In this document: one piece after another, positions 20,505-58,138 of the stretch
How positions within the stretch are numbered: the first letter of the stretch is position 1
Layout of the letters: each line of letters starts with the position of its first letter
Assembly (NCBI GenBank): GCA_030704615.1
Contig: CM060732.1
Coordinates: 59,768,001-59,832,000 of the forward strand
Reading direction: 5' to 3'
Source of the DNA: Takakia lepidozioides
Lineage: Eukaryota; Plantae; Bryophyta
Length of the DNA stretch: 64,000 nt
Position numbers and translations under genes: made by a program
Notes under the pieces: model-generated
Seen by the model: the letters and a program-made list of their open reading frames with translations, nothing else
Told to the model about the DNA's origin: nothing
Database searches by the model: none

Positions 20505-23500
20505 ATGGCCAACGAGGGTAGCAGTTTTTCCATTTCCCAAGAAAATAAGCTTGCTGGAAAGAAGAACTATGAGGTGTGGAAGTTTAAAGTCAAAAACCAT
20601 CTTCTCGGAGAGGATATCCTTGAATGGGTTGAGAGGAGGATGGTCTTAGCTGAAGGTCGGAACAGGGATGAGTTTAGGAGGAAGAAACAACGTGCTTACA
20701 CCATTATCAATCTCTCTCTTACAGATAGGACGTGTGCCGCAAGAGATAACATACTTTTGCCAGTGATCCAATACGTCTCCCATCTCAACGAGCCTAAGAA
20801 AGTCTGGGATGCCCTAGCTAAGATGTACGATGATAGGTCTTCTGCTAGGAAGATGTCAGTGAGAAACAAGCTTCAAGGCATTAGAATGGAGGAGGGAGCC
20901 TCTATGGAAGATTTTCTTGAGGAAATTACCAATCTGGTAGCCCAGCTCACTGACTTTGGTGAAGAAATCGAGGAAGACACTATCGTGGAATATATCTTGA
21001 ACGCGCTGCCAGAATCATACACTGCCTACAGTGATGCGATTATTGCGCAGAGGGAGCTCCCTAATCCTCCGAAGCTGATCACGAAATTGCTACATGAAGA
21101 GAGCCGACGAGAACTGAGGGGTCGAAAGTTGAACCAAGATAAAACGTTGTGGGTAAAGTTCAAGCAAGCATACAAACAAAATGGCAGACCTCCTTATCAA
21201 CAAAAGACTTCAGCATCTGTTTGCAATAGATGTGGCAAGGAGGGCCATTGGGCCAGGAACTGTACAATGCCATATGAGGATCTGATCCTGAAGGCAAGAA
21301 ATCAGCAAACTGCCCACGTCGTTGAGGAGGCACCATAAGAGTCAGAAGAAGAGGATGACGACGGTGAAGCAGCTGAGATGCTTGAGGTAGCATTGGCTGC
21401 CCTCAACACTCATGATGAAGGAGTTTCGTCGAAGAAAAAACCAACCTCCTGGATCGTTGATTCTGGCGCAAGTAAGCATGTGACGGGCAATCCAAAGATT
21501 CTCCATGATATGGACCCCCCAGGCGGTAGTGCTACTAGTGTCCGATCAGCTGAAGGCTCTCATCACTAGTTTAGCATTCTTAAACCGCATGCGCTCATCC
21601 ATCATCTCTACCATATGCCTCTCATTGCGATAAGGATGCTTTTGTAGGTAGACTTGATCAGAGGCAGGCAATCCAGTAATGAAGTAGGTTTTAAGAATGG
21701 CAGTGCATTCAAAGGGTACCGGAATAGCCTTGACCACCATGGTTTTCAAGTCAGTATAGTATTTCCAAATACTCTCACCAGGTTGATAAGGACGATCGGG
21801 CATGGTGTAATTGATGGGCATGTCTGCACGAAACAACTGAAGCGCCAACTGCTTGGCCACTCCCCATCGCAATTCACCCTGATCTTTGATACTAGCTTCA
21901 AAGAGGTCACGAGCCTCACCTTTGAGACAAAAACGAAAGGAATCAATAATCATAGAAGCTGGCAGTTCATTGAATTTGACACTCATCTCAAAAAAATTGA
22001 GAAAGTTGTCAAAGTCTTGGCCTACCTCATAGTCAGGATAAGGCCGTTTGTGAGCACGATGAACGTCCTTGAGCTGGGTAACTGAAGGCGAACCTACTTG
22101 TTTATCCAAAAAGAGCTGCATAAGAGTTGGACAACAAGACAGTGTAGCCATAGCATCACAAATGCCCTGAATAGGCACATTACCAGAGGCTGGAGGGACC
22201 CCTGGGGTCGGACTGGTGTTAGCACCTGGCCGTGGCTCCTCAGGAGACAAAGTTTGAGACATAGGATCAGGAAGAGCATCACCATCATCTTTCACAGCAT
22301 CAGTAAGATCCACATCATGCAACTCATCTAGCACATTCCAGGGCTCCTTGCTAGACCGAGTAGTGACAGGCATTGTAATTGGTCGGGTTTTAAGAAAAAC
22401 AAAGTGGTTACCTTCCACTGGAGGATCGTGCAGGACGCAATTTGGACTCCCAGTCCTTGATACAATAGCCACTTATGAACCTATGTTTGTGAAGCATGTA
22501 AACACCTTCACCCAGAAAGTGCCACAATTCTTCGTCCACTTTGAGCCAGAAAACCACACGAACTATGGAGCGAATAAGCTTTTCCTTGGCAAGCAGTGTG
22601 TGCACTGGATAATCAGTAACATGAAAGCCAGGCAAGTAGTAACCCAACCGTTCTTGTCTAAACACAAGAGCACGGAAAATCAAAATATCATGCACAATAT
22701 GAGGAAAGCGAGAGACATGAATGCATGCGACATGGTCATCCCAAGTGATGTCCACATTGTAGTCAGGTTTCCAGGTAGGCCGTAGGTTGGCCAAGACAAG
22801 TGAACTGCCACCTTTCACCAGCTCCCACAGACGATATGCACTGGGTAAGTTGGCAGCCAAGGAAAAGACTGTGTTTACCTGTAAGATGGGTCTCTTTCAG
22901 TTTCTGTGAAGGGGAAGGGTCATGCAAGTATAATGCAAAATGGATCAATAAAGCACATAACCAATGTTCTTTACGTCCCTGGCATTACTCGTAATCTACT
23001 TTCTGTTAGTGCACTAGCTGATAAGGGCCATCTTGGTATATTTGACCATAGAAAGTGTTTGTTTGGGGAAAAAGAGAGACCTCACAAATTGATCTTGCAA
23101 GGAAAACGAATATCCTCTGGATTGTATAAATTGTCATCTGATGATAAGTCTCTCCCCGAGGTGAACACTGCCGAAGTTGAGGAGTCAGCTAGGCTATGGC
23201 ACAGAAGGCTCGGTAACTTAAACCACCATAGTCTTCATTTTCTCAGTAACAGTGGGAAGGTTCTAGGAATGCCTCGACTCCCTCTCCTTTCAGAAGTCTG
23301 CAAGGCATGCATACTAGGAAAACAGCAGAGGGAAAGATTTCCTCGTTCTAGTGAACACAAAACAAAACAAATATTAGAACTAGTGCATGTAGATCTATGT
23401 GGACCCCTTCCAGCACCTTCTTTATCTGGCTCCAAGTACGTTATGGGTATAACAGATGACTACAGTAGATTTACATGGGTGTACTTTCTCAAGTAGAAAA

Positions 23501-24060
23501 GTGAAGCTTTTTCTTGCTTCAAGAACTTTAAAGTTATGATAGAGAAAGCTACAGGGAAAACCATCAACTGCTTGCGTACAGACCGTGGTGGAGAATTTAT
23601 GTCTCCGGACTTCAGCAACTTCTGTAATGCTGAAGGAATCCAGAGGAAACTTACTAATCCACACACGCCACAACAAAATGGCATCTCTGAGAGAGGAAGA
23701 ATCGAACTCTGATAGAGCATGCAAGGAGTTTACTGTTGGAGAACTCGTTTCCTAAGTATTTGTGGAGTGAAGCAGTCAATTGTGCTGCCTACCTTCTGAA
23801 CATGTCACCAACTTGTGCCAATTCTGGAGTCACGCCCTACCAACGATTCTTAGGTATCAAGCCTAATCTATCTCATCTGCGTATTTTCAGGAGCAAAACA
23901 TATGTCCATGTTAAGAAACATAAGAGAGATAAGCTGGATTCCAAGTCTGTCGAAAGCATAATGGTGGGTTACGATACAGTAACCAAAGGATATCGATTGT
24001 TCAACCCTACAACTCGCAAGGTTTTCATCAGTCGGGATGTTAGGTTTGTTGAAGACTCTC
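20505..24060 (+). mobile_element. Ty1/copia element 1, 5' half: gag, zinc knuckle, protease, GAG-pre-integrase and integrase (degenerate)
   Basis: KLAGKKNYEVWK, LNALPESY, CNRCGKEGHWARNC, WIVDSGASKHVTG, LWHRRLG, ELVHVDLCGP, DDYSRFTW, LRTDRGGEF, SRDVRF; internal stops; interrupted at ~21566-22900. Confidence 0.92.
21566..22900 (-). mobile_element. Inserted fragment with a retrotransposon gag-like ORF and a small upstream ORF
   Basis: ORF 21546-22472 (YEVGQDFDNFLNFFE, LKGEARDLF, QPGESIWKYY, FITGL) is gag-like; the copia frame GSHH...SVKGKGH resumes on either side; no TSD found. Confidence 0.6.
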
Positions 24061-24069
24061 TACGCAAGA

Positions 24070-24904
24070 TTAAGTGGGGAACAATTCTGAGATCCACAAG
24101 AACTTTCGTACAAATTGCAAGTGCAGCTTTTATTTTTCTCCTACTAGATGTCAAACCGAATGTGTAAACCAGATTTTGGAACAGTATCTTCGCTGTACAA
24201 TAAATCATCACCAAGATAATTGGATAGACCTTCTGTCATTGGCTGAGTTTGTCTACAACAACACTATACATTCTTCGACCAAGCAAACTTTATTTTTCTC
24301 CAATTATGGTCATCATCCTCGAGCAAACATTTTCCATATGAAGACTGTTGGAAGCCCTGCTGCAGTAAACCTTGCTACTCATCTTGCTATGATTCACAAT
24401 GAACTTACATTCCACCTCGCAGAAGCTCAAAAACAATACAAGCAGTATGCAGATCAACATTGTCAATTCCAACCCCAGTTCAAGGTCGGAGATCGTGTGT
24501 GGCTTCTTCGACGGGACATACAAACCTCGCGACCATCAAGGAAGTTGGATTATCAACGCCTGGGACCATTCAAAATTATTCGACAAATAAATCCGGTCAG
24601 TTTTCGGCTTGAACTCCCACGAAGTATGCGCATCCATCCAGTCTTTCATATTTTATTATTAGAGTTGTATCATCCATCGAATATTTCAGGGAGAGTCTCC
24701 GTACCACCTCCACCAATCGAAGTCAATCAGGAAATTGAGTATAAAGTCGACGAAGTCTTAGACTCTCGCATCAAGTATAAATGTCTTGAGTATTTCGTAC
24801 ATTGGAAAGATTATGACATCAGCGAACGAACGTGGGAACTTTCATCCAACCTTGCTAATGCATCTGACAAAGTCCAAGAGTTTCATCAACAATATCCACG
24901 ATAA
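24070..24904 (+). mobile_element. Ty3/gypsy chromovirus (Tcn1-like) integrase C-terminus and chromodomain, 5'-truncated
   Basis: QTECVNQILEQYLRC, AEFVYNN, FKVGDRVWL, KLDYQRLGPF, IHPVFH, chromodomain EYKVDEVLDSR..YFVHWKDY..RTWE. Confidence 0.88.
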
Positions 24905-25508
24905 GACGTCACCATGATGATGTCAGTCAAGTTAGCTTCAAAGTGAAGACTCCACATTCAATATACCTGATACACGCTAAGGAGGGAGGAGCACCACACA
25001 TCAGTATATATAGCTATACTTCCAGCACTCTTGCATCTTGTATTCGCAGTATGGAGTTACATGAACCAGATACATTGGAGTTGTCACTTACCCAGCCACC
25101 AGATCAGTTGTTCCGACTCTCACGACCTTCAACATCACGCCTATGCTCTCGAGACGATGGGCCACCAATGCGACGCGTACTTCCTCGTCTGGACCCCGTA
25201 CGACTACAAGTGGAGCCTACTCGAAGTCTGATAATTCTATTGGAAGTTGAGGCTTCGGACCCAGATGGCAACGAAATCATGTTTGAAGGCAGCTTCGAAA
25301 ATCAGAATGCTCAAAATCACTTCGTGGTCCCAAGTTCAAGGTGTTAGACACTATCGATGGTTGCAGGGACCCATAAATCATTTGAGTCAAGAACGAAGAG
25401 GCGAATACTTGGCAAGTACCATTCGCCGGATTTTGGATTTTCTCCAACTCTAAGCAAGTCCAAGATTTTACCGCTCCTCGAGGAACTCGGCGCTAGAGGA
25501 GGGGGTGA

Positions 25509-26154
25509 TGTCACGGACATAGCCCAGATGAACTTATCAGGAGTAAATATCAAAAATTATCAAGTTATCATGTTATCGAAAGTTACCATGACTTAGCGTG
25601 ATTTACCATAATCTATCATAATTTATCATTACTTACCAAATTACTGGGAATTTACCAATTTACCAAGAGTAACTTGGAAACTGCTTATGAAGCTTCCTTT
25701 GGAGGAAACTTCTCCATCAAGATATCTCATTTGTTTAAGGAAGCTCCTCCATCACCTTTGTTTAATCTTGGAAACTTCTCCAGCAAGAAACCTCCATAGG
25801 AGAAGCTTCTTAGGAAAGCTTCGTAGTAGCCAGTATATATAGGAGGCGAGACTGGACACTCTTCAGTCTCACCAACACCAGTTCAAGCTACTCTTGTTTC
25901 CAGTTCCCAGTACTCCAGTCCAGTTCCCAGTACCCTAGCCCAGTTTCCAGTATCTGGTAATCCAGTCCAGTTTCCAGCATTCCAGTATTCAAGTCGTGTT
26001 CCAATATCTTGTACCCTTGTTCATTGTTATAAACATCGCCTTGATTCATATTTACTCATCGTGCATACGGCCACGCCGACCTTGACTTCATGCCTAGTCT
26101 TGTACCTCTAGTCTGATCTCTTGTTTGTGTTCAATCATGTTCTCATCCTTGACA
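25509..26154 (+). repeat. 3' LTR of the chromovirus
   Basis: Purine tract GGAGGGGGTGA, then TGTCA...TGACA inverted ends; internal TATATATA and CCAGT-rich repeats; the flank resumes copia protease (SQHMTD). Confidence 0.8.
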
Positions 26155-28609
26155 CATCCCAGCACATGACGGATAAGAGATGTTGGTTTAAGTCCTACCG
26201 AGTAGTTCGACCTGGAAGCTGGAGCGTCAGAGTAGCAAATGACAACCTAGTCTGGGTGGCATGAGTAGGGGACATAGAGATTGTGTCTCTCCTTAATGGT
26301 ACCTGACAGAAAGGCATCATTAAAAACGTTCTTCATGTTCATAAACTAGGAAAGAATCTACTATCAGTTGGTCAGATAACCGACAGAGGAATTGTAGTTG
26401 TGTACCACAATAGCACTTGCTCTATGTTTTCTCCTACCAGAAGATTAGTCATGACAAGAGTTAAAGATGGTCAGTTGTGGCGCATGCACTTCAAAATAGT
26501 TCTCCCTATACAGACAACAAATCTAGTAGTTCTAGAGGACAAAGCCGAACCCGAACGCGATGAACTTGTGAAAAAGAGAAAAATGTCGGGACCTCCTGCT
26601 GAGAGTCTTAGTGTATGGCATGCTAGGCTTGGGCATGTTCACTATGACATGATGATAAAGACGAATCTCGAAAATTTGGTCACAGGCTTGCGTCTCAAAG
26701 AAACAAACACAGAGAAAGTTTTTTGTGAGAGCTGTGCTAGAGGTAAGAGTTGTAGAACACCATTTATCGTGAAAGAACAGAGAGAAAAAGCACCATTGCC
26801 TGGTGAATTTTATCATGCAGATGTTTGTGGTCCAATGAGCACTACATCTCAAGGAGGAGCTCGTTACTTTGTATCTTTTAAAGATGATTGCAGTTGTTAC
26901 AGGTTGTTGTACTACATCAAAAAAAAATCCGACGTTATGGAATGTTTCAAGAAGATGCAGCGAGAGTCCTTCAGGTCGACTGGGAATCGAGTCATCAAAT
27001 TACGGAGTGACAGAGGTGGAGAATTCATAAGCAAAGCTTTTAAGGAGTATCTTGAGACTGAGGGAATTCGTCAAGAACTCACCACACCCTATTCTCCATA
27101 GCAGAATGGGGTGGCAAAAAGGGACAATCGTACCCTTATGGAAAGTGTGCGTTGCATGCTTCTGGAGAAAGATATTCCGCTTTGTTTTTGGGGGGAAGGT
27201 GTACAGACAGCAGCATACCTAATGAATCGTGTTATAACTAGAACATTGAATGGGATGACACCACTACATGCATGGTCTAACAAGAAGCCTGATGTCACAC
27301 ATCTGAAAGTGTTTGGCTGCGATGCATTTGTTCACGTGCCTAAACAGCTTAGACAGAAGCTTGATCAAAGAGCACCAAGTGCATTTTTCTTGGATATTGC
27401 ACTGAAACAAGGGTCATAGACTGTGGGATCCAATTAAACAGAGAATTGTGATTAGCAGAGATGTACTGTTCAACGAAGGTTTGATGGGCTCTGAATTTGA
27501 AGCAGCTCCTATAGTATTGCCCAATGCATCGGAAACAGTGACATTCTGGCATAATTATGACAAAAGCTATGGAGAGGTCACAACATTCAGTTGAAAGAGT
27601 TTACAATGAAGCCGAAAGAGTCCCTGTCAACACCATTCCAGTGAATGACTTGGTGGTGGAGATACCACTTGAAGCTGCTGGGTCTGAAAGCGTCACTGTC
27701 AACACCATTCCAGTGAATGACTTGGTGGTGGAGTTGCCACTTGAAGCTGCTGGTTCACTAGGTGAAAGCAGTAATTCTAAGACTAGCTCTAGCACAGAAA
27801 GCAATGCTTCCTTGATGCAGTCAAACAGTGGGAGTACGATTGCAGAGCCAAAAATGTTCTTCAAGAGTTCACGGAATCCTCCGGAGAGGTATGGGGATTG
27901 GGTTTCTCTGCCAGAAACTTTTACTTCTTTTGCTGGAGCAGTGGGAGTTATTCTTGAAGAGCCTAAAACATATGAAGAAGCAATTTCTTTTGATCACCGA
28001 GAGCAGTGGGAGCAGGCAATGCTAGAAGAATACAAATCGCTCTTGGCAAATGAGACCTGGAAGCTTTGTGAACTACCTGCTGGCAGACAAGCAGTCAAAA
28101 GTAAATGGGTTTATAGAACCAAAATCAAAGCAGATGGGACCATTGATCGTTATAAGGCCAGAGTTGTAGCTAAAGGCTATTCGTAAACTCGTGGAGTTGA
28201 TTACGATCAAATGTTTGCTCCAGTAGCAAAATTTGACTCAATTCGTTCAATCCTATCCATTGCTGCAGTGGAAGATATGGAGATTGTTCAATTTGATGTC
28301 AAGAGTGCATTCCTGCATGGAAATCTTGAGGAAGAGATATACATGGAGCAGCCCTTGGGTTTCATAAAGGAAGAGGAGTCGAAATTGGTTTGTAAACTGC
28401 AAAAAAATATCTACGGCATTAGCAGGCATCTATGGCTTGAAATGCCGAGTTTAACAAATTTCTCACAATTCATGAGCTTGTATCCACGACAGCAGACCCC
28501 TGTGTATACGTGAGTCACAAGGAGCCAGTTCTGATCATATCGATTTACGTGGATGATGGTCTTGGTGCTTGCAAGACCAAAACCAAACTGGATCATGTCA
28601 TTAGTGATC
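26155..28609 (+). mobile_element. Ty1/copia element 2 (protease C-terminus, integrase, RT), degenerate and truncated at both ends
   Basis: SQHMTD, VWHARLGH, CESCARGK, HADVCGP, LRSDRGGEF, EPKTYEEA, YKARVVAKGYS, QFDVKSAFLHG, IYVDDG; ~72-bp tandem duplication at ~27620-27755. Confidence 0.9.
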
Positions 28610-31554: not shown

Positions 31555-33420
31555 TGGAGACATGATACTGCCACTGTGACAACATGAAAGTATCCAAAAA
31601 CACGTAACAGAGATGAGGAGAAGCTGTGGATGAATACTTTTCTGACCCAAGTCAATGCTGGGACACCGAGGCAAAAGGTGAATGCTTGATACAGGAGAGT
31701 AGTAGACGCAATTCAGTATAGGAACTAGTGTAATAAGCTGAGTTGGGTGTTTTGTAGAACAAATCTAGCTGTCATTATCAGCTGCAAGAGACAAAAAGGT
31801 GAATGCCTGTTGGACTACAGAGAGAAGCAGATGCAATATAGAATTGGAACTACTATTATAAGAGGGCTTGGGTGTTTGTTGGAAGAACTTCACGCCGTCA
31901 GTGTCAGCTGCTAGTAGCAAAGCTGAGGATATATTTATGATTTGTACATAGGCAGGGATATATAGCTGAAGGACCAGGGATAGAGGTCCAGATTTATCCA
32001 AGAGGGCCAGATTCCAAACACAAGATTACTTATAATTCCCTGTGGATCAATAGCTACAAGTGGATAGATGGTCAACTGGAAACAGCAGCGGCAGCAGCAC
32101 AATTGATAGAACAAGGCACTGCTGATGAAGTTACCTTCTTCAACACATTTCGCCCTGTTTTTCCTGCTATCAGAGTCGTCCCTGAATTTTGATGTTGAAT
32201 TCTACAAGGTAGCTGAGGAGAAGCTCTGGAAGGAATACGTTTAAGACCCCAGTCAATGGTGGAACAATCGAGGCAAAAAGGTGAATGTCTGTTGGAAGCA
32301 GACGCAAATCAGCATAGGAATTAATGTGACAAGTAGGGTTGGGGTGTTTGCTGGAACAATTCTAGACTGTCATTGTCAGCTGCTAGCAGCCTATTGATAA
32401 AATCAGGCACTGGTAATCAAGGCACCTTCTTCAACACAATTCACCCTGTTTTTCCCTCTAATCGGAATCGGCCCTCATGTTGAATTCTGCAAGTTAGCTG
32501 GTTGAGTGAACCTTTGATAGTTTGGAGTGACTTTGACATGATACTGTCAATGTGACAACATGAAAGTATCCACATGTAACAAAGGCGAGGAGAAGCTATG
32601 GAATGAATTCTTTCTGACCCCAGTCAATGGTGAGACAATCGAGGCAAAAAAGTGAATGCCTGATGGATTACAGAGAGTAGCATATGCTATTAAGCATATG
32701 AACTAGTGTGGTAAGTAGGGTTGGGGTGTTTGCTTGAACAATTCTGGGCTGTCATTGTCAGCTGCTAGCAGCAAGGCAAGGATGTATGCATGATTTGTGC
32801 AGAGGTATGGATAGCTGAAGGGGCAGGGATAGAGTGTGGGTCCAGATTTCATCCAAGAGGGCTGGATTTCAAGCTCCAGATTACCTATAATTCCATATAA
32901 AATTAGGCACTGGTAATCAAGGTACCTTCTTCAACACAATTCACCTTGTTTTTCCCTCTAATCAGAAATCGATCCTAAATTTTCATGTTGAATTCTGCAA
33001 GTTAGCTGGTTGAGTGAACCTTTGATAGTTTGGAGTGACTTTGACATGAAACTGCCAATGTGACAACAGGAAAGTGTCCAAAAACAGGTAACAGAGACGA
33101 GGAGAAGCTGTGGAATGAATACTTTCTGACTCCAATCAATGGTGGGACAATCGAGGCAAAAAGGTGAATGCCTACTGGATTACAAAGAGTAGCAGATGCC
33201 ATTGAGCATATGAACTAGTGTGATAAGTTGAGTTGGGTGTTTCCTCTAGAGAACAAATCTAGGCTGTCATTGTCAGCTGCTAGTAGCAAAGCAAGGATGT
33301 ATGCATGATTTGTGTAGAAGCATGGATAGCTGAAGGAGCAGGGATAGAGTGTGGGTCCAGATTCATCCAAGAAGGTTGGATTTCAAGCTCCAGATTACCT
33401 ATGATTCCCTGTGGAAGGAT
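31555..33420. repeat. Degenerate tandem array, ~500-bp unit, about 3-4 copies
   Basis: CATGA(T/A)ACTG..TGTGACAACA..AAAGT at ~31561, ~32537 and ~33046, with shared downstream blocks (GAGGCAAAAAGGTGAATG, GTCAGCTGCTAG). Confidence 0.8.
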
Positions 33421-34739: not shown

Positions 34740-35860
34740 GTGATTCGGAGAAGGGTTTAGGGTTTTAAAGGGTTTAGGATAGAAAGAGAGAAACAAATAT
34801 GGACGACTCTAAACCGAATATAAAAATGTAAGGGGAATTTGATATCTATGTAATCATTCTATCATACGTTATCCAACTTGAAAATTAAAGAAAACATTAA
34901 GAGAATGATACAAATTTTACAAGAGGTAACATGGTAGTACAAGAAGGTTTGGAGTTTATTATTAGTAGGGTACTACACTAAGGTTTTTGGTATATGGTAA
35001 AAGTAATGGTTTAGGGTGCTAAGGGTCACGCTTAAGCTTGGGGTAAGAATTATTAAGGGAAGGGTAAGGGTTTAGGGTTTGGATTTAGGGTAGAAAGAGA
35101 CAAACAAATATGTAAGACTCACACATGGTAGTACAATAACTTGGTTTGGAGTGTAAGTAGGGTAGTACACTAACATGGTTTTTGGTATATTATGGTAAGA
35201 GTACTAATGGTTTAGGGTAGTAAGTGTCAGGCTTAAGCTTAGGGTAAGGATTAAGGCCAGGATAAAGGAATGGGTAAGGATTTAGGGTTTGGATTTAGGG
35301 TAGTTCAAAAGGACAAACAAATATAGAAGACTCACACATGGTAGTACAATAACTTGGTTTGGAGTGTAAGTAGGGTAATACACTAACCTGGTTTTTGGTA
35401 TATGGTAAGAGTACTAATGGTTTAGGGTAGTAAGTGTCAGGCTTAAGCTTAGGGTAAGGATTAAGGCCAGGGTAAAGGAATGGGTTAGGATTTAGGGTTT
35501 GGATTTAGGGTAGTTCAAAGGGACAAACAAATATAGAAGATTCACACATGGTAGTACAATAACTTGGTTTGGAGTGTAAGTAGGGTAGTACACTAACCTG
35601 GTTTTTGGTATATGATAAGAGTAATGGTTTAAGGTAGTAAGTGTCAGGCTTAATCTTAGGGTAAGGATTAAGGCCAGGGTAAGGGTTTAGGGTTTGGATT
35701 TATGGGAGTACACAAAGGTTTTTTGTATATGGTAAGAGTAATAGTTTAGGGTACTAAGTGTCCGGCTTAAGCCTATGGAAGGGTTAAGAGAAGGGTAAAA
35801 CGAAGGGTAAGGATTTAGAGATGATGGTAAAGGTATAAATGGACAAACAAATATAGAAGA
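34740..35860. repeat. ~210-bp tandem repeat rich in telomere-like TTTAGGG
   Basis: CAAACAAATAT anchors at ~35101, 35314 and 35524, with partial units flanking; each unit has several TTTAGGG/TTAGGG. Confidence 0.85.
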
Positions 35861-36363
35861 CTCGCACTCACTAGAGCGAGACATTGCAAAAAAACATTTA
35901 GACCGGATTGGAAAAGAAAGAATCCAGGGGTTGTGCCAACATTTTTTTTTGGGGTGCATTGTTTGTTTTGTAAGCCAGAATCCCCCATGTCACGAATATA
36001 TGTAGATGAACAGAATGTACAGCAGTGCAGAGTCCAACACAGCAGAAGGAAAATAGATGAACGTCCACTGCCCACTCGAGGTTCATTGCGACAGAAAAAG
36101 AAGACATGAAGGATCACCCAACGCAAACACGAAGGGAAAGAAGCGTAAAGAAAATTTTATATCTTAAAATAAAAGACCGGAAATAACCTCAACATTTAGT
36201 CCATGGATGGAAAATGGTTTGCAAGAAGGAAACCTTCAGGTATCTGGCTGAAGGTTAGCAACCTCCAAATTCGCGCGCGCCTTCACTGCTTCCACCGCTG
36301 TAATTCTCTTGGTGCTATTTCTTGTCATATTTTTTCGTGGCGGCATTGTCCACACGACATTGT

Positions 36364-39300
36364 TCACGTGGATCCATTGAGCAGGATCTGACGGGTTGTA
36401 CTCCCAAACTTTTGACCAACAGTCCCTGTAAAGTCTGAGGGGTTACCTCTTTTCTTCGGTCTCCACCACTTCACCTTCACCTTCTTAAAATTAGGATCTT
36501 CCCTTTCTCGGATGACATCTGAAATTGCCATTCCCATCCAGATCGGGCACGTCGTTGGGTCATGAGGGCGAACGAGCACAAAAAACCCTTTCTCAATATC
36601 CTTGAACGGATTCAAGGGTATCCTTGGACGCTCACACCTAGGGCCACAGTAAGGTTCTGGAACTTCATCCTCATCTTCTTCCAGTATCTGTGGCTGGATG
36701 TCATCCCTCCGATGGTTTGAAAACCAATTTGTTTTCGGCGAAAATCCCTCAAGAAGCTGAATACGATCCGGAATGTCCTGCATTGGCTTATCAAGTTCGG
36801 CGAGAATATTTCCCCAGTATTGGTTATATTGTTCCATTACACCCCGGTAATGATCGTCAAGCAACATTCATTTGGTCCAAAAATCTTTGTATTTCTTAAT
36901 ACCATTTTTTATGAATGACTGTTTTTCTGAGGAGTCGTCCCCGACTCCCCATATCGGTCTTCTTGGAACGACATCTGGGTCTCCTTCAGGGAGATATGGA
37001 GTCCCATCAGGATTGGACTTCCACATCGTAACGCTGGAGTTTGTAGGAAGCCACTCCGAATCCGTAGCTGCTTCTTGTACTTCATAACGGGCCAGCCATC
37101 CGCATCTTTAAAAAATCGAAAGATGTGCATCTCTGAGATCCCCACCAAAGCCTCCTTTCCATCATCAATACAACCCTTAACAAACTTCTTGAAGTCGGAA
37201 ATCTCCTGTATGATTTGAGGAATGAATTGCATATCTTGGGGGATCATGAATGACCTCATCAAATCCGGAAGAATGTAGGTGTTGCGTTCCTTTAGCTTCT
37301 TCGAGAGATAGCTAAAGAATCCGTCAATATCCTCATGGATGTGCCCGACCATGAGAAAACCAAGCTGGATCTCTTCAAAGACATTTTTGGCAGTGAGGAA
37401 GGATATGAAAGCAAGCATCCATCTGTTCTTATTGTCCTTGGAGGAGTTGTCCATCTGCAAATAAAGTCGTCTAGGAAGTGGTCGAGCACCACGTTTATCG
37501 TGCGGCCTGCAGGGTTTCACAGCCTTCAAACATCTCGATTTATCTCTCATGAGCGTTTCAAAAAAATCATTTTGAACTTCAGTGTCGAAAATGTTCATGG
37601 ATTCTCGGCATGTCGGCTTTTCCAATTGGCGCAGGCACCGAGCCAGCGACACAATTGTGAAGTTTGAATTGTCTTTCCAAAAAAAGGAAAATTGAGCGTA
37701 AGCTCCATCTCCGTGTCCGTGCGTAACCATTCCTGTCAATGAGACAGGCAACTGACCCAATCCGGAGACCATCTTGTTCGTCGTCTGTATCCTCGAAATA
37801 GCCGTTTTCCTATGATCCATCTTATCATGAATAATACATAGGAACTCCTCCGGAACCATAACAGACTCATTCCTCCAGCTATGGTACAGCCTTCTGCATG
37901 ACTCTTGATGCCTCAAGTGCAAATCAAGCGCCCGCTTATGTGCGACCTGTTCGGAACTTCTCTTAATCGACTTCTTGATCAAGTCCTTGAACATCTCGCA
38001 TTCTGTGCACTTAGCAAAGGTGCTTCCTGTTTTCCGAACCTCCACGTTAGGAAGTATTCGATTCCGTATACGGCTTATAGCTGGCTGCGAGACTCCTTTC
38101 AAACCGAGCAGTCTGTTTGTCTGCACCCCAATTCCCCAACAATGTCAACATCCACTGGGCAGTGGAGGTTCTACAAAGTGGAAGAACAAGAAAGCATGAT
38201 GGCATCAAAAAGAATAAAATCATTCACAGTATTTTGAAAAACGAAAGGGGACAACGAATAAAAGTCACCTCGTTGGACTCCTCTCGAATTCTCTTCCAGT
38301 TCATTTCGGGTGGCAAAATTCTCAAAGTATCCCGACGTCCCTCTCCAATGCAACATGTTTTGTGAGGCATAAGGTCAGTATTGGCATTGATAATGGACAT
38401 AATGCTCCCCTCTGCCTGGAGTGTCCCTGGTCGCGGCCGCTTGACGCCACGATTTCCGTGGAAAGATGACAAACAACCCTCTTTACTGAGCTTTTTGTAC
38501 TCCATGTACGTTGACCTTCCAATTCCGTGTATTATCCACCATGCTTTCTCGCAAACATCAACACCTTCTATCGTAATATACCACCTGCGCGATGACCCAT
38601 CCATAATGTGAAGTCGTTTTGAAACATTCAATCCAAGTTCTCTCTTCTCATCGAATGACGAACCCCAAAATGCAGTACGAATTGCCAAGGTTTTTCTCCA
38701 ATCAAAATACTGGCAGCACTGAAGCTTGCAGCAAGGTTTGCTGCTCACCGACCTCACTTCATCCAAAGTGAGATTTTTCTTGCACCTTTTTGAGTCCTCC
38801 ATATTGGATGGATTTTTCTTCCTAGTAAAATGCCTGTATGCTGCTTTCAATACGCTTGTACCATGGTCGTCATTCTCCATGTCACTGCATGGTCGTAGGA
38901 AATTTTCGAGATCAACGGAGAGTATCCGGCCATTTTCAAGAAGTCTTGTTTTTGTTAACGGCCATTTCACAATCGACATGAGTGAACCGGACTCTCTAGA
39001 GATTGTTCTGGTGACCAGAACCCCAACATCGTCCTCTCCGAGTTTGTCATTCAGAATGATCTCGTTAGGAATGCATGCTTGAATTCGGCCTTTGAACAGG
39101 GCGTTTCCGTCCTCCCCAAGAAGAAGACACTGCAAGTTTCTCCAACATTCTCTCCCCAGACCTGCAGGCAGATCCCCCCCAGTCTCACCATTGGACGGAA
39201 TATCATTGCTTTTAGTGCTTTGTCCTTGATAATCACTACCTTCTGTGATGGAATGACATCCTGGGTTTCTCGGGGATGATGAATCCATAGTTTCATGCGT

Positions 39301-39490
39301 GCGAACACATGACACGTCCCACACAACTGGAGTCCCAATCGCCTCCTTCAATGTATCAGCATCCATGTGTCGATAAGGCAGAGGACATGAGCCGAATGCG
39401 TCATCACAAAAGATCAGGGTAACTGAAATGGTGGACGAACACAAGTGGTGTCCGTGGCAAGTTCCATCCCCAGAAACATTCAGGCCAACC
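36364..39490 (-). pseudogene. Intron-containing DDE-like transposase (DUF7869/Sola-like), frameshifted at the C-terminus
   Basis: Cys-rich CCKLQCC and VCEKAW; phase-0 GT-AG intron 38268-38121; CTEC..H zinc-like motif; IIHDKMD, LYLQMDNSSKDNKN, FLMVGHIHEDIDGFFS as a putative acidic triad. Family assignment is from recalled motifs. Confidence 0.65.
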
Positions 39491-39820
39491 ACTAGGCTAC
39501 AACTAGTCAGTCACTAGGCTGCCACTATGCTGTCCACTATGGCAGTCACTAGTCCACACAATCGCCCCCCTAGCTGGTGCTTAGGTCCCTCTAAGTCCAG
39601 GTAGCCACAAGATGTGATAGTGACCATAGCCTCACTAAGTCCTCTACCACTATCCCTACTACACTCAAACTCGATAGATGAAGAGGCTGGGTGCAAGAGT
39701 TGCCCCATCGTTAGTCGCCATCTTGCAACCTGTGAACTTGAGCTTGGGATCTCATGTATTGACTCCTATGAGCTTGGCCTCCCATGTCTTGTTAGCTGCC
39801 TCCAGTCATGTCCACTGCCA

Positions 39821-39950
39821 CTATCCCAAGCAGTGTGGACACAACCAATCTCCGTCAGGAACCTTCTCAAGAGGTGGTGTCAAGCATCCCATATGCCAAC
39901 CCCTTGGGCATCGATCACACACTAGCATTGGCAGACCCACAGAGCATGCA
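39821..39950 (-). pseudogene. PHD finger (C4HC3) at the integrase C-terminus
   Basis: Hand translation: CMLCGS/(small deletion, frameshift)/MLVCDRCPRGWHMGCLTPPLEKVPDGDWLCPHCLG*. Confidence 0.9.
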
Positions 39951-40097
39951 CCTCAAACCTGCAGGTACCACTGCCAAGTTTGGGTCAACTCTGCCATCGA
40001 CATTGGGAAGGTGACATGGCGCACAATTACGCACATGGTCCTTCCAAGTCATGCTATCCCGACCCTCCAAGATCAGGACCCCTGAGGGCAACACCTC

Positions 40098-42790
40098 TCA
40101 AACCCTCAGAATAACACGCCCTGCAGTAATATCCAGAGTCGTAGGAGCAGTCTGCTGCAAATAAACATAGTCACCAGGGCTAAACCTCCGAACCCCAGGA
40201 CGATATCCTCCACCACGTATAGTGGCATACCTTAACGTATCACGGTGCTGTGCATTGGCAAGGTTCTCAAAAGCCATGGGCATGACATTCTTGAACAACT
40301 CTGCACGTTGATCACATGCACGTACCCACACGTCCGGATCATCAAGGTTAAGGACTTGAACAGTGTCCCTACGAATGGTTGTAGACAAATCCGACTCTCG
40401 GCCAAAGAGAAGGAAATATGGTGAGAAGGAGGCAAGTGATACTTGTTTGCTGAACCTCTAGCCCATGGCTAACCAAAGAACCTGAAGATCCCAATCTCCT
40501 AGGTGTCCCTTCTGCAAGCCATACTTGCGCAAACCCCTCTTCACCGTCTGAACAACTCTCTCTGCCAAGCCATCGGCCTCAGGATGATCCCGAGAAGTGG
40601 TGCGGTGGTCTATCAAGGCTTTATCACACAAAGCCTGAAACTCCCCCAAGAACTCTCTCCCTTGGTCCGTGAGTACCTCAGCTGGAGCACCAAATCGGCT
40701 AAGCACACGATCCAAGAATGCATACGCAGCCCCCTCACTAGCCTTGTCAAGCAATGGAACCAACTCAATCCACTTGGAGAAGTGCTCCACCATCACCAAC
40801 ACATATCTGTGGTGGCGCATAGTCAGTGGCAACGGTCCTGCGAAGTCAAGACTCCACCTGTAGCCCAATCCCATGATTGGTAAAAGATGCAACTGTGGTG
40901 TAGGGGCGTTGAATGAAGCACGCACCCTGTCACACACCATACACCTAGCCACGAACTGTTGCACCTCTGTATGCATACCACGCCACCAATACTGCCCCTG
41001 CAGTAAACTGTGAGTGCGTCGCACTCCAAAATGCCCCAACTCCTCATGGGCATGCCGCACTAACCGTGCACACTGTGTGGGGTGAGGCACAATCCTCACC
41101 CGACCATCCTCCCATACTCGAAGTAGGTGTATCCCCTCCCACTTAAACCTCTTGGCTCGTTGCAGGATCCGATCCCTCTCCCTGGTAGTCACAGTGGCTG
41201 CCGTGTCTCCCGTGCGGAGGTAGTCCAACACAGCCGAATCCTCATGTATATCTCTGGTACCACCTGGCTCATCACTAGCCTCAGGGTCCTCAGACACTCC
41301 GTCTACAGTCATCCCTGTTGTAGGTCCAACCTGACCTCCCGATGCCAAGATACACAAAAATGCAGATGCGTGCCATCCCGACACCATCTCCTTGTCCGTC
41401 TCACCATGCCACCGAGCTCCAGTGTCATCCTGCTGGCTCGTGCATGGATTGCGACTCAATCCATCCGCATCCCGATTGACCAAACCCGGTCGATGCACAA
41501 CCTGAAAGTCAAATTCCTTGAGTATGAGTGCCCATCGTGCAAGCTTCCCCGTAAGCTTGTCTGACTCCATCAACCACTTGAGTGGCTGGTGATCCGTGAC
41601 AAGGGTGAAAAGATTGCCGTATAGATAGCACCTGAAGTGTGCCACGGCCCACACTGCAGCTAAGCACTCTCCCTCATATGAGCTGTATTTAGCCTCTGCA
41701 GCGTTGTTCGAGCGGCTAGCATAAGCCACTACGAACTCTCTTCCCTCATCATCCACCTGTGTGAGCACCGCTCCAAGCCCCAGCATGCTCTAATCCGTAT
41801 GCAGCTGAAAAGGACGCCCCCTGATAGGTCGTCTCAGGATAGGCGCCGAGGTCAACCTCGCCTTGAGCTCTTGAAAAGCTCTTTCCTGCTCATCTTCCCA
41901 CTGTCACTCCTGGTCCACCTTGGTCAGCTTGGTTATAGCCTTTGCAATGGTACTAAATCCCTTGACAAACCGTCTATAATAGTTTGCCAACCCCATGAAA
42001 GCTCAAACTCGGCTCACATCCGTGGGGCGTGGAATTTGTGCAATGGCCTCTACCTTAGTCTGTTGTACCCCCAATCCTCCAGGGTATATCATGTGACCCA
42101 GATACTCAATCTGGTTGTGGAAAAACTTGCACTTCCCCGGATGCAACTTCAATCCGTGCGCTCTCAAGCGCTCCAATACCACCTGAAGGTGTATCTCATG
42201 CTCCTCCACCGTAACACTAAAGATGATGATGTCATCTATGTAGCACCGAGCAAAGTCTACCCCTGCTAGAATCCTATCCATGACTATCTGAAACTCTGCA
42301 GGAGCATTCTTAAGCCCAAATGGTAAGAACCGCCACTGATATAGGCAATCATTGCCGTGATCATTGATCCCCCAAAATGTCGTCTTCTGCTTGTCCGCCT
42401 CCTTGATTGGCAACTGGTGATATCCGGATCATAAATCCAAAGTGCTAAAGACCTTAGCATGCCCGATGGCATCAAAGATCTCCTCTGGTGTTGGCATGGC
42501 ATACTTATCAGACTTGGTCTGACGATTTATAGGCCGGTAATCACCGCACATACGTCTCTCCGTCCAATTGCCATAGACATCCTTCTTGGCTGGCATCACT
42601 GTGGCTGAAGCATACTCTCCACCAGAGAGCTCCACCAAACCTGCGTCCCAGAGATCTTGAGTCCTCATCTGAATCAAAAACCTCTCCATGTCACTGTATC
42701 TATAGGGTCTCCGAAAGATTGGCGTGTCAGTGGCCAACTCAATACGGATCTCTTGACCCTTCAGTGCTCCCAAGTCCTTCAAACTGAAGG
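40098..42790 (-). pseudogene. Gypsy RT, RNase H and integrase
   Basis: RMCGDYRPIN, FSTLDL*SGYHQ, LPFGLKNAP, CYIDD (RT); VAYASRS, ECLAAVWAV, TDHQPL, DADGLSR (RNase H); HEELGHFG..CMVC, WSLDFAGP, VLTDQGREF, ADGLAER (integrase). Confidence 0.95.
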
Positions 42791-43239
42791 CAAAGCAATT
42801 CCTGTAAGCCCTCAGGAACCGCCATATACGTCGTCTCTCTCCTCCGGTGACAATGGGTCCAATGTCAGGCTCCCAATTGTCCTCCGTAACTGCAACCTTA
42901 AGTCCAGTGGGCTTAGAGGTAGAGGACGCGTCCAGTGGTTGCTATGTTGCAACCTCTTGAGCAGTACTCCCTACCTGCTCAGTCAGTGACAAGGCCTCAT
43001 CCTGCCCCATCATCTCATCCTTAAGGACTTCCTCCACCCGAGAAAAATCCCCAACCTCATCTATCACCGCCACCTTTGGCTGCCAACTCCCTCTGAACCT
43101 CGAGCACCTCCCATGTGTGCCATGGATGCCTGCACCCCGTGGTCCTCACATGCTCGCCGCCACTGACTGCCTGTACCGTCTCGGTAGGCAGAGAGACCAT
43201 CAAGGGAAGTGTACTCCGCACTCTGCGTTGCTCAGCCAT

Positions 43240-44200
43240 AGCCAAGCTGATAATCCAGGTCAAGGAATTGAGATCCATTGCTTGCCCCAACACCTGACGA
43301 CATGATGCCTCAGAAAGAGATGACACCGCCGTGGTACCAGTGGTAAAACCCATTGCCCGCTCACGCTCGTCAGCATTAGGCTCCACTAACTGCTGCAACT
43401 GAGCATCCCACAGGAGGCCAGGTCCACTATCCCGGAAAGCATGCGATCCTGGGAAGCTGAGCAGTGTAGGTAATGCTGCTCGTGGTTGACCCACCTTGTT
43501 GACCACTGCCAAAGGCGAATGGTCATCATGTCTCACACGCTGAGACTGCCTCCCTGTGTCCAGAATGCTATCCACTGTGAGATGTGCTGGCCGCTGCACC
43601 CCATCAAATGCACGCTTGAGCAGTGCGGGTGGCATCAAGTTAGTCCACCATAGCTGTGGACGATGAGCCCGTGACCCCACTGTAGCTGCATCTAGCAACA
43701 CTGCTGACCCAAGCCACGACCGGACTTGATGCACACTGGCCATCACCCTGGCCCGAGAATCGCCCATCAGTGGCACATTCTCCAGGATGTATGCTGGAGA
43801 TACAGCTTGATGAAGCTGCAAGTGGCGCAAAACCCGCACCATCTCCCAAAACAGACCCGACCTCGAGTCTCGCAATCCATTGCCATGCTCGGCTGATGAA
43901 TGCCCTTGGCAGGGCCAACCTGCCACTACCAGATCAATGGAGCCAACCCGCTCCAAATCCTACGCTCCCAGCAACGAAATGTTTGCTGGCAAGGCCTGCT
44001 GATATCCACGAATTGCAGACACCGGCAACAAATCAGGGTACCGCTACACCAACTAAGCAACATGACGAAGTGAAATGCGTCATGTAGTCTCATCCCTCTC
44101 CACATACAGGTAACGCCGAACTCGTACACCTGCCTGTAACACAGCAGCCAATCCGGTGCTGATCCCGCCAAACAAGTCCAGAAGACAAATGCCTTCATCC
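43240..44200 (-). pseudogene. C5-cytosine DNA methyltransferase domain (DNMT3-like) inside gypsy pol
   Basis: One frame carries motif I LLDLFGGI (44161-44184), II YLYVERD, IV DLVVAGWPCQGHS (PCQ 43906-43914), VI YILENV (43774-43782), VIII AHRPQLWWTN, IX ERERAMGF and X LGQAMD; nonsense codons at 44080, 44053, 44044 and 43960. Confidence 0.93.
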
Positions 44201-44399
44201 GGATACTACCACACAATAGATGTGGTGTCCAATGGAGACAACTGAGGTGGTCCTGGTGCAATCCCCGCACTCTCCTCCTCTCCTGACGGTACAAAAGCCT
44301 CCACCCAGGCTTGTTGCACCCGTCGATCAGCATCCCGCTGCAAATCCTTGCTCGTGCCCACAATGGAGTCTGAGCAACCATGGTAGGCAACTCCGCCAT

Positions 44400-45226
44400 A
44401 CCATACATGTCATCCTGCTCTCCCGGAGGTGGCACATCCTCTGAATGAGCGTTGCCCTCAAGCAACTCTCTAGGCCAACTCACTGCCGCTGTGAATGCTG
44501 CTAGTGTCGGCATCTTGCCTCGCTGGGCAACCGTAACTCTTCCTATGAATATTACAGGGAGCTGCACACGCCGACCCTCCCCTGACTGCCATGCAGGCCT
44601 ATAGGAAGCTGACTCCTCCCAAAAATCCAAGGTGAAGCCCATGGGGTACAATACTGCCCCACCAACCAGGACATCGTATGAGACCGCGTCTTTCACAATG
44701 GCCTTGGTTCGCGTCACTGAGCCATCTGTAGGGTGATCCGGCCGTAGTCTGATAGCCAACTCACGCCGTGTCACATCCTCCACTCATCGATCTCAACCTC
44801 ATGCTCCCGCCTGAACTCATGGTAATCATCCATAGGCGGCCCCTCAAGGTACTGAAACAACCCCTTCCATGCCATGAAAGGCGTAAATAGTTGTGGATTG
44901 CGCATTTGCTGCAAATCACACCAACTATCAAACTCTTGGATAAAATCATCTAACTCGATGGTGCCCACCGCCCCAGAGTACCTTCGTGGCCCCTTGGTAG
45001 CTCCATACATCTCTTCCATTGTGTCCCACAATAATGGCAAGGAAACAACTTGCACCGCCGGTATGAGTCCTCCTGATTCACAATCCGAATCAGATTCTTC
45101 CGTAGAAGACACAGGAGGTGAAGGTGGCCTAAACCGCACACCTCGTCTCATGTACCCACTAGTATCGCTAGTGCTCAAACTGGCACTGTCCCCAGCAACT
45201 AGTGGCACCTCCGTGTTGACACTCAA
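44400..45226 (-). pseudogene. gag N-terminus joined by an internal deletion to the protease C-terminal half
   Basis: PRRYSG..ELDDFIQEFDSW..LEGPP (gag) switches abruptly at ~44780 to YDVLVGGAVL (retropepsin C-terminal motif); the catalytic DSG/DTG is missing. Confidence 0.7.
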
Positions 45227-45899: not shown

Positions 45900-46840
45900 G
45901 CACAGGCTGTCCACAGGTCAACACGGGCCACCACAGACCAGCACAGGCCCACACAGCTCACTGGTCACAGCCGTCACAGCCCCACACAGGCCACAGCCTG
46001 TCACAGCCCTACACAGGTCACAGGGTCACAGCCCCACAGGCTGCAGCCTATCAAAGCCCGTCACAGCCCCAAAGGCCACATGTCACAGCCTGTCACAGCC
46101 CATCACAACCCCAAAGGCCACAGGCACAGCCTGTCACAGCCTACAAAGGTCACAGGGTCATAGCCCCAAAGGCCACAGCTTGTCACAGCCCCTCATAGCC
46201 CCATAGGCCACAGGGCACAGCCTATCACAGCCATAGGGCATAGCCTGTCACAGCCCCTCACAGCCCGTCACAGCCCCATAGGCCACAGGGCACAGCCTGT
46301 CACAGCCCTACACAGGTCACAAGGGTCACGGCCCCAAAGGCCACAGCCCGTCACAGCCCACCACAGCCCGTCACAGCCCGTAACAGCCCCACAGGGCACA
46401 GGGCACAGCCTGTCACAACCCCTCATAGCCCGTCACAGCCCCAGAGGCCACAGGGCACTGGGCACAGCCTGTCACAGCCCGCCACAGCCTGTCATAGCCC
46501 GTCACAGCCCCACATGCCACAGGGCACTGGGCACAGCCTGTCACAGCCCGCCACAGCCTGTCATAGCCCCTCACAGCTCGTCACAGCCCCACAGGCCACT
46601 GGGCACAGCCTGTCACAGCCCCTCACAGCCCGTCACAGCTCGCCACAGCCTATCACAGCCCGTCACAGCCCCACAGGGCACAGGGCACAGCCTGTCACAG
46701 CCCCTCATAGCCCGTCACAGCCCCACAGGCCACAGGGCACAGCCTGTCACAGCCCCTCATAGCCCGTCACAACCCCACAGGCCACTGGGCACACTTGTTA
46801 CAGCCCCTCACAGCCCATCACAGCCCCACAGGCCACTGGG
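45900..46840. repeat. Minisatellite of ~10-bp TCACAGCC(C/T)G-type units
   Basis: Dozens of GTCACAGCC, CCACAGG and GGGCACAG units with strong C/A strand bias. Confidence 0.92.
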
Positions 46841-47269
46841 CAGTTTAGCCATTTCTCCAAGGGGTTTAGCCACGCAAAGCTAGGGTTTGTGTCTCTTGGA
46901 CTCTAGGCTTCTTTGCGCCGAGCTATGGCGGCTGTGAAGAAATCAGCAAGGTATTCTTGCTCTTTCGGCTCCCACACACCACCAATAGTAGCCCTAAGCC
47001 ATGAGGAAGATGGTTGCCACAAACCAAGCCTTCTTTCTCACTTAGACTCCCCAAACACGCCACTAAACTCAATGGCAAACAACCAAGCCTTGCTGGTTTC
47101 CAGCCCTTGTGAGCACTCATTCAAGCGTTTCCCTTGGCCATAGCATCTGTCTTAGAGCCTATTCCAGCCCCCTACACCTGCCACTTCAAGAGCCATGCTC
47201 TATCTAGGCTTGAGGTCGAAACCCCAACTCAGAACACGCTCTACAAATGTCGGACTATCACATAAGAGC

Positions 47270-57646: not shown

Positions 57647-58138
57647 CACCTGGAGATTTATGGTGTCTTTAAGCATTATAAATGGAACAAATTGTGTGTA
57701 TTGCATCTGGTTGTGTTTTTGGCAATACCTGATCTGTATCTTAATATTTCCCACCTTCTTGAAATTTGTATGTGACTGACGGTAAGAAAACTCATATAGA
57801 TCCATGAACGGAAATTGGAGGAAATCACACAAACCCGGACAGAATCCATCGCGACTCAAACAGTGAGGAGGCAGGTGGACTTAACGATAAGGGCCAGCCC
57901 AACTGATCTGGTCAAACAAACAACCTCCACCGCCCAGTTGACGTTGTGAGATGGAGGAGATGAGCCGGAGATGGTCGTTGCTCACCGCGAAGGAAAAGAG
58001 AGCGAGCAACAACATCAGCAAATTCGGAACCCCTCCCCGAAACGGGTATACACCTCATAACCATCTTAGCTATGTTCTTCTTTGTCCTTCTTCTAGTTTT
58101 CAAAATTAATTAATTGTTCTGTTATTCCACAGGATGAT

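Follow-up and report, generated by a model that had tools for sequence, protein, structure and literature searches.

A decayed PHD finger at the integrase end of a DNMT3-bearing Ty3/gypsy copy in Takakia lepidozioides

How retrotransposons choose their landing sites and why some of them carry DNA methyltransferases are two questions that meet at one locus of the bryophyte Takakia lepidozioides, where the remains of an LTR element seem to hold a DNA methyltransferase (DNMT) and, at the end of the integrase, a PHD finger. The locus lies within 64,000 nucleotides of contig CM060732.1 (assembly GCA_030704615.1, positions 59,768,001 to 59,832,000 of the forward strand), the whole stretch analysed here, which is called the window and numbered from its first letter. 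An earlier note made from the letters alone had seen the finger on the minus strand and proposed that the element pairs a histone reader for integration targeting with a DNA-methylation writer. The reading favoured here, with a probability of roughly 0.6, is that the window holds the decayed PHD finger of a dead Gypsy-DNMT3 integrase, that the finger of a live copy would bind unmodified histone H3 and tether integration to nucleosomes free of H3K4me3, and that the DNMT would act separately, on the cDNA.

The finger is real and beyond chance. It stands exactly where it had been placed, from the first Cys codon (39950-39948) to the stop codon (39823-39821), and all eight C4HC3 zinc ligands as well as the W-x-C-x-x-C end are encoded, spanning one frame break: the integrase frame reads ...VDPNLAVVPAGLRCMLCGSA, which holds CMLC, and the second part follows in the next frame as MLVCDRCPRGWHMGCLTPPLEKVPDGDWLCPHCLG and a stop (MLVCDRC...CPHCLG, stop). 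The 35-residue second half alone scores 40.6 bits against Pfam PF00628 (E 2.6e-10), for which the curated cut-off is 24 bits, and the pattern from C3 to C8 occurs once across the six frames of the window and in 0 of 200 base shuffles. The peptide first proposed was right about the finger and wrong about its terminus, ending at CPHC and missing the last two residues; that the finger is absent from the ORF track was correctly remarked, and in this copy it is out of frame with the integrase. Between Cys2 and Cys3 the window copy has 19 bases; in 123 of 143 relatives 11 residues stand there, which leaves the window copy 14 bases short. Contigs of the same organism carry 14 extra bases at 39919-39930, or a sequence that departs from the window at 39928, and the break is therefore a deletion private to the window copy and no programmed frameshift. 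The zinc ligands are near-invariant across 127 aligned relatives.

Relatives were collected in three ways. A protein query made of the integrase tail plus the PHD gave 134 matches, and the finger is carried by 116 of 120 among the matches listed, a share biased toward PHD carriers by a query that itself contained the PHD. Queries with the DNMT only gave 136 proteins, including 53 single ORFs with DNMT and integrase C-terminus, 40 of which have the PHD. At the DNA level, among 80 metagenome loci found by integrase patterns and ranked against the IN-PHD query, the PHD lies directly behind the integrase in 72 of the 74 contigs with room for it, upstream, 44 of the 48 contigs that reach far enough have a DNMT, and the two features coincide in 41; a single open frame through integrase C-terminus and PHD is kept in only 11 of 73 rows, so most copies have decayed like that of the window. 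DNMT and PHD occur together in 65 single ORFs among 251 proteins. Intact, intron-free IN-PHD fusions are present in liverworts, Sphagnum, Coleochaete, Klebsormidium and chlorophytes; the carriers named are, in streptophytes, Marchantia, Calypogeia, Sphagnum, Coleochaete scutata and Klebsormidium nitens (GAQ92421.1) and, besides these, Pleodorina, Chlamydomonas eustigma, Haematococcus, Cymbomonas, Hariotina and Monoraphidium.

In these intact relatives the integrase runs on into the finger, as had been supposed for the window element, and the finger occupies the place where chromoviruses have their chromodomain. The PHD is thus a conserved C-terminal domain of the element's integrase and no captured host piece. 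That it might instead be a host exon captured separately, or a chance neighbour of the element, is suggested by its position out of the integrase frame and its absence from the ORF list; the weak correlation between integrase and PHD identities to the window (rho 0.16, p 0.06, 139 proteins) points the same way and is uninformative. This explanation is refuted by the intact intron-free fusions found across green plants, and it also conflicts with the polypurine tract and terminal repeat that come after the PHD and with the presence of the missing bases in same-organism copies; its probability is close to nil. Among the proteins collected, P0298 has two PHD stretches, the C-terminus of P0048 is a degenerate PHD-like Cys cluster, P0269 continues into a Copia-type RT, and P0243 (CAA9586175.1), a member of an RT-RH-IN-PHD cluster, is labelled as an uncultured Synechococcales cyanobacterium, its contig likely being that of a plant or alga sorted among the bacteria in binning.

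The finger closes a collinear series of domains on the minus strand, namely gag-PR-DNMT3-like, a stop, and RT-RH-IN-PHD (Table 1). The claim that the same element carries a DNMT holds: a DNMT3-like domain lies 3.2 kb upstream of the finger on the same strand. It keeps motifs I, IV (PCQ), VI (ENV), VIII, IX and X and, among solved structures, matches DNMT3A best (E 1e-5), ahead of DNMT3B, with M.HhaI at 0.012 and DRM2 at 0.36. The window copy is a dead Ty3/gypsy copy, with many stops, two further frame changes besides the break in the PHD and, by comparison with Marchantia P0003, a deletion of about 590 Gag residues of intact relatives. Two of the stops are private, another base being found in 686,810 of 690,235 depth units at 40100 and in 714,841 of 749,347 at 40458 (same-organism run X1). 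Summed contig depth is about 10^6 over the element and about 10^4 in the flank, values not equal to copy number, and CpG ratios do not tell self-methylation from host methylation. The closest named proteins are those of Calypogeia fissa and Marchantia polymorpha (best matches 62-76% identity), followed by Sphagnum fallax (53-60%), matches that by themselves suggest a bryophyte, or some other seed-free plant, as the likely host; for other copies of the host organism, linkage of DNMT and PHD is predicted from relatives. The window contains no tRNA gene, and no primer site was identified in it; a GC-rich 10-mer array upstream of gag is possibly the element's 5' leader.

Table 1. Parts of the Gypsy element and adjoining sequence, in window positions
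Feature	Positions	Strand	Remarks
GC-rich 10-mer tandem array upstream of gag	45900..46850	.	maybe the element's 5' leader
N-terminal ~90 residues of Gag	44732..45019	-	matches P0003 residues 1-92, then resumes at 682 onward
Aspartic protease region	44430..44780	-	match to P0003/P0005; Asp_protease_2 on relatives P0017 and P0265
DNMT3-like C5 cytosine methyltransferase domain	43200..44205	-	PF00145 E 1.6e-10; several stops
In-frame TAG, then CAA CCA	42936..42944	-	between DNMT and RT
Reverse transcriptase	42060..42800	-	PF00078 E 2.1e-26; stops present
RNase H, Ty3/gypsy type	41480..41840	-	PF17917 E 3.5e-31; stops present
Integrase H2C2 zinc finger and DDE core	40460..41090	-	PF17921 E 3e-15, PF00665 E 5e-13; private stop 40458-40460
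Integrase C-terminal region (helix and SH3-like beta domain) and linker to PHD	39951..40457	-	private stop at 40100
C4HC3 PHD finger ending the pol frame	39821..39950	-	PF00628 E 2.6e-10; broken by 14-base deletion, about 39930
Polypurine tract	39565..39571	-	conserved with relatives
First 3' terminal repeat stump, ~75 bases	39486..39561	-	depth step and loose ends at 39485

An intron-free, unrearranged DNMT3-like domain inside a Gypsy (PR-RT-RH-IN) element is common to the window element and to KnitGypsy-Dnmt3 of K. nitens, the 'streptophyte Gypsy-DNMT3', whose Gypsy pol comes with a DNMT3-like domain without introns and with intact catalytic motifs, and whose repeats follow an A-coding-B-A-B arrangement as in the DIRS retrotransposon (PMC5890265, de Mendoza et al., 2018). 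The same DIRS-like arrangement is seen in the relatives of the window element, complete in 8 of 60 rows of related contigs (L002, L023, L024, L031, L041, L063, L065 and L078), while 18 more bring those with the B-A-B part to 26; L002, L023 and L078 belong to the stop-codon subclade of the window. K. nitens has, in addition, the partial IN-PHD protein of the window's family cited above. Repeat layout, DNMT3-like domain and this K. nitens protein together make the element a very likely member of the Gypsy-DNMT3 (KnitGypsy-Dnmt3) family. It differs from KnitGypsy-Dnmt3, reported from K. nitens only and with the DNMT in the Pol ORF (PMC5890265), in its land-plant host and in the conserved stop between DNMT and RT. 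No K. nitens DNMT is among the 136 proteins from DNMT-only queries. The word PHD does not occur in the text and three supplement files of that report, the Fig. 4c of which may draw one, and a later article (PMC12344493) merely restates its result.

All eight complete rows begin with TG and finish with CA, and six of them have an exact 4-bp target duplication. The duplications show no sequence preference, and NCGN, the insertion site preferred by Phygy, a non-chromovirus moss clade (PMC6317226), appears in 0 of the 6 exact ones, of which one could be a decayed CG (a small sample, from relatives only). These ends, with TG...CA termini, 4-bp duplications and a polypurine tract abutting B, look as if a DDE integrase had opened a two-LTR circle at an inner B|A junction, an odd integration route. 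Past its stump of about 75 bases the window copy lacks the remainder of the B-A-B end, and another element follows downstream; the window contains no second copy of the 3' repeat, so the insertion is not datable from repeats.

What the finger of a live copy would read can be approached through its residues. In H3K4me3 readers of the ING, BPTF and TAF3 type the cage Trp stands at a position which we take to be two residues before the zinc-binding His; it is found there in 0 of 143 members, with Gly in 133. The family keeps an Asp after Cys3 (136 of 143) and P-x-G-x-W/F (111 of 143), and the terminal-type fingers of the land-plant branch keep this Asp in 31 of 32, a Met at Cys3-3 in 28 and P-x-G-x-W in 24, residues that presumably line the H3 A1-R2 site in solved relatives. 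Among the best 60 solved matches are CHD4, PHF12, AIRE, ATXR5, PHF21A and KDM5 PHD1 as well as BAZ2, DPF, KAT6, UHRF1 and TRIM24/33, and no ING, BPTF or TAF3 entry. The finger in an AlphaFold model of the IN-PHD part of the relative P0087 (pLDDT about 74-86 in the finger, mean 48, and poor outside the SH3-like domain and the PHD) overlays those of BAZ2A, PHF21A and UHRF1 at 1.1-1.2 A. In sequence and in fold, the nearest solved neighbours are of the class that reads unmodified H3 (BAZ2, KDM5 PHD1, CHD4, AIRE, UHRF1), which suggests an unmodified-H3 reader rather than a reader of H3K4me3.

H3K4me3-reading PHDs hold methyl-K4 with an aromatic-cage Trp, while BAZ2A/B and KDM5 PHD1 bind unmodified H3 and have an acidic wall that excludes the methyl-K4 Trp; neutralising the acidic patch weakens BAZ2A binding 17-fold (PMC5415848). 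The wall, taken as Asp or Glu at Cys3-5 or -6, a trait of the helical-H3 subclass only that was mapped via KDM5 alignments, is present in 81 of 111 tailed fingers of the algal branch and in 6 of 32 terminal-type ones; the window copy has lost that position. Because the wall is mostly lost and its neutralisation has so large an effect in BAZ2A, fingers of the land-plant branch may bind H3 weakly or in another way. It could even be that the PHD is a conserved accessory of the integrase with a non-histone or structural job, at least in that branch, for example in host-factor binding or in keeping the intasome stable. The scarce acidic wall would fit such a job, as would the fact that Asp is not among the six commonest residues two before Cys1, the existence of atypical PHD targets (PMC10124903) and the 4-bp duplications without sequence preference; the retention of the Asp after Cys3, the Met at Cys3-3 and P-x-G-x-W, and close solved relatives that are all chromatin proteins, make it unlikely.

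With an H3-reading finger as the preferred view, the PHD likely helps new copies dock on chromatin. Its targeting of integration is suggested by analogy, from its place at the end of the integrase, from the chromovirus precedent (PMC6673714) and from the intergenic bias of Gypsy-7a_cRei, a PHD-bearing Chlamydomonas Gypsy that inserts between genes 2.6 times as often as chance would give (PMC9940879). Chromoviruses likewise have a chromatin-reader fold at the very end of the integrase, in a position that steers integration (PMC6673714); the window element has a PHD in place of the chromodomain, and then a stop. No chromodomain (PF00385) was found on the family proteins scanned. PHD-bearing LTR elements of green algae, which the earlier note had mentioned, are indeed in print (PMC9940879, PMC8557442, PMC6673714): in Gypsy-7a_cRei (PMC9940879) and REM1 (Perez-Alegre, 2005) a PHD is likewise an accessory of a green-lineage Gypsy polyprotein, the text covered for both mentions no DNMT, and the Gypsy-7a legend puts the PHD before INT, maybe another position. 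The terms PHD, methyltransferase and Marchantia are absent from the REXdb text (Neumann et al., 2019; PMC6317226), the chromodomain targeting role being taken from PMC6673714.

The relation between finger and methyltransferase turns on the stop that separates DNMT and RT. In the window's subclade the two lie in the same frame with a stop between them; the frame is continuous in 6 of 38 rows, which belong to another subclade and have no in-frame stop, and in P0265, P0106 and P0140. In 15 of 38 rows, that of the window among them, RT is preceded at a distance of 126-164 bases by a stop followed by CAR (rows with TAG-CAR include L001, L002, L007, L010, L013, L023 and L055), and liverwort ORF1 proteins terminate at the matching place. 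The window copy reads TAG CAA CCA at 42944-42936, a context that fits UAG-CARYYA, the type I readthrough motif of plant viruses (PMC5382211). Only 5 of 38 rows have the complete CARYYA, where background would give about 1.8, and most others have CAACCY. The stop is likely leaky, that is, read through, as judged from this context. CARYYA and a retrotransposon were not found together in the literature searched. In L049 the stop reads TGA CGG, a readthrough context of type II.

In the life cycle proposed here, ribosomes would mostly stop after Gag-PR-DNMT and occasionally read through into RT-RH-IN-PHD; the particle would then contain much DNMT and little IN-PHD. The protease would free DNMT and IN-PHD as separate proteins, the DNMT would methylate the new cDNA of the element, and IN-PHD would steer insertion away from promoters marked with H3K4me3. 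Since DNMT would be made at the level of Gag and RT-RH-IN-PHD would be a minor readthrough product, methylation of cDNA in the particle is favoured over a DNMT guided by the PHD. Methylation of cDNA has been proposed as the role of retrotransposon DNMTs (de Mendoza et al., 2018); the DNMT of KnitGypsy-Dnmt3 gave no methylation in yeast, a result its authors deemed inconclusive (PMC5890265).

Two layouts of the family bear on this point. Layout A, that of the window, bryophytes and charophytes, reads gag-PR-DNMT, RT-RH-IN-PHD, stop; layout B, with its named members in chlorophytes, reads RT-RH-DNMT-IN-PHD plus a tail. FastTree trees split largely by layout, with 2 label changes against 29 in shuffles for the DNMT (87 rows) and 3 against 24 for the integrase (94 rows); they are midpoint-rooted and have no host DNMT3 outgroup, so that one DNMT capture followed by a move is indistinguishable from two captures, and P0056, a DNMT alone, is wrongly labelled as layout A in them. 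Of the layout-A relatives, 42 of 44 keep the catalytic Cys of the DNMT and 44 of 44 the EN motif; in layout B each of the two is kept by 41 of 42. A full PHD is present in only 3 of 14 single-ORF proteins of layout A versus 37 of 39 of layout B. Closterium and other DNMT members end after the SH3-like domain without a PHD, and four layout-B relatives in one nested clade (P0147, P0153, P0162 and P0167) lost the DNMT and kept the PHD. The pairing of DNMT and PHD is usual, not obligatory.

In animal DNMT3 proteins an ADD finger that reads unmodified H3 is joined to the catalytic domain and regulates it. DNMT3A/B and the window element likewise combine a DNMT3-type catalytic domain with a finger of the unmodified-H3 class; in the window, however, the finger is a canonical C4HC3 PHD on the integrase and is separated from the DNMT by some 1,050 codons and a stop. 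The reader-writer pairing of the earlier note survives in that both domains belong to one element; its likeness to a DNMT3-ADD unit is weak, as a stop and RT, RH and IN intervene and as DNMT elements without PHD (Closterium, others) and PHD elements without DNMT exist. Were the DNMT to stay in the integration complex and be guided by the PHD as by ADD, the chromatin at the landing site would be methylated. For such coupling speak the two domains found together in 41 contigs and 65 single ORFs, the place of the layout-B DNMT between RH and IN, adjoining an IN-PHD whose finger is nearly always kept, and a PHD class that would read the same H3 state as ADD. In the window's branch, the stop and RT-RH-IN lie between the two domains, full PHDs are few among layout-A ORFs, and the protease would presumably cut the integrase-side domains apart; moreover, a clade within layout B dispensed with the DNMT and not with the finger, and PHDs are common as accessory domains of algal transposons. 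A coupled complex is, on these grounds, improbable, and in the window's branch DNMT and PHD probably serve the same life cycle without forming one reader-writer enzyme.

The window element has no algal tail, and its pol frame stops two residues past the PHD. Layout-B tails match Tudor weakly (PF21743, 4 of 24 members), and they often add a domain with DPF-x-G-x-G and [TS]SP[PW] motifs. In 9 of 24 members this domain is similar to phrog_799, a DNA methyltransferase of phages (best E 3.5e-8), and in 6 of 24 it resembles PF02086 weakly; it does not match PF05869. When modelled, the domain resembles the structures of METTL5, M.TaqI and type I M subunits (Z 11-12, rmsd 2.8-2.9 A over 150-167 residues), which suggests an amino-type DNA methyltransferase fold. 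It occurs in 18 of 60 layout-B single ORFs with DNMT, integrase and PHD, many copies having degenerate motifs; ORFs that combine RT-RH-DNMT3-IN-PHD with a Tudor-like domain and the amino-methyltransferase fold include P0157, P0123, P0163, P0070, P0067, P0188, P0291 and P0298, and the P0157 and P0123 clusters have several full-length copies.

These proteins recall the EpiLTRs, which carry a chromodomain, a DNMT sister to DNMT4 and an NPP-type DAM, and which, with the DAM-LTRs, likewise combine a chromatin reader with DNA methyltransferases in LTR elements (bioRxiv 10.64898/2026.05.21.726589). Neither a PHD domain nor Tudor is named in the main text of that preprint. Of such domains the window element carries just a DNMT3-like one and a PHD, with no chromodomain, DAM or DNMT4-sister DNMT; its algal sister clade, which has a Tudor-like domain and a methyltransferase of the [TS]SP[PW] type (no PF05869 match) in addition, is a possible third EpiLTR type. 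A wider and rather doubtful reading would see in the family an old, green-lineage-wide Gypsy clade with a read-write kit of its own, a transposon-made counterpart of DNMT3-ADD in which the integrase PHD would seek out nucleosomes whose H3 tail is unmodified and take the DNMT3 along, landing and methylation of a new copy being one step. The leaky stop of land plants would then set the ratio of writer to reader, and an EpiLTR-like algal arm, in chlorophytes, would chain DNMT3, integrase, PHD, a reader of the Tudor-like kind and, as its second methyltransferase, one for 6mA or 4mC, forming a third, independent EpiLTR type missed by searches with DAM profiles.

A DNMT3 in Gypsy, a PHD in algal LTR elements and a reader with a writer in EpiLTRs are each already described in the sources cited, and the Gypsy-DNMT3 family itself is large and in part known. 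PHD and DNMT in one LTR element were not found in the literature text searched, and figures, subscription papers, theses and preprint supplements may hold the combination. The PHD of the Gypsy-DNMT3 family, its land-plant range, the leaky stop and the algal branch with two methyltransferases seem under-described; the stop and the chlorophyte sister clade with its second, amino-type methyltransferase are the least described pieces and probably new. In Marchantia polymorpha, a tractable model for which chromatin maps are in print, many annotated genes belong to the family, so that targeting by the PHD and self-methylation are testable there. In this liverwort Mp_4g09160, Mp_8g17980, Mp_6g11220, Mp_2g26090, Mp_7g09570 and MARPO genes are Gag-PR-DNMT or IN-PHD pieces of the family, annotated as hypothetical or DNA methyltransferase genes; such annotations could distort counts of host DNMTs.

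Other features of the window were noted. A true chromovirus integrase end (SH3_Tf2-1 and Chromo, E 7e-12) at 24074-24901 (+) is nested in remains of a Ty1/copia gag, integrase and RT at 20424-28186, and a second, distant Gypsy RT-RH-IN is 31-37% identical. Two long ORFs at 36367-39510 (-), one with DUF7869 (E 1.5e-41), immediately follow the truncated 3' end of the Gypsy copy and are probably a DNA transposon. A charged, low-complexity frame of 1,355 codons at 2677-6744 (+), with no Pfam match, ends RS-rich with the start of an RRM and presumably resembles a large exon from a plant gene akin to that of the U2AF large subunit. The distant Gypsy, an exon of a GMC oxidoreductase and two NIF/FCP1-like phosphatase frames without introns lie among 58097-59619, 18310-18738 and 62190-63989 (+). 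A short palindromic repeat of about 35 bases occurs in six copies (38140, 48621, 51361, 51563, 52512 and 53490), and repeat arrays are found at 31560-33360 and 34980-35870 (about 210-base units).
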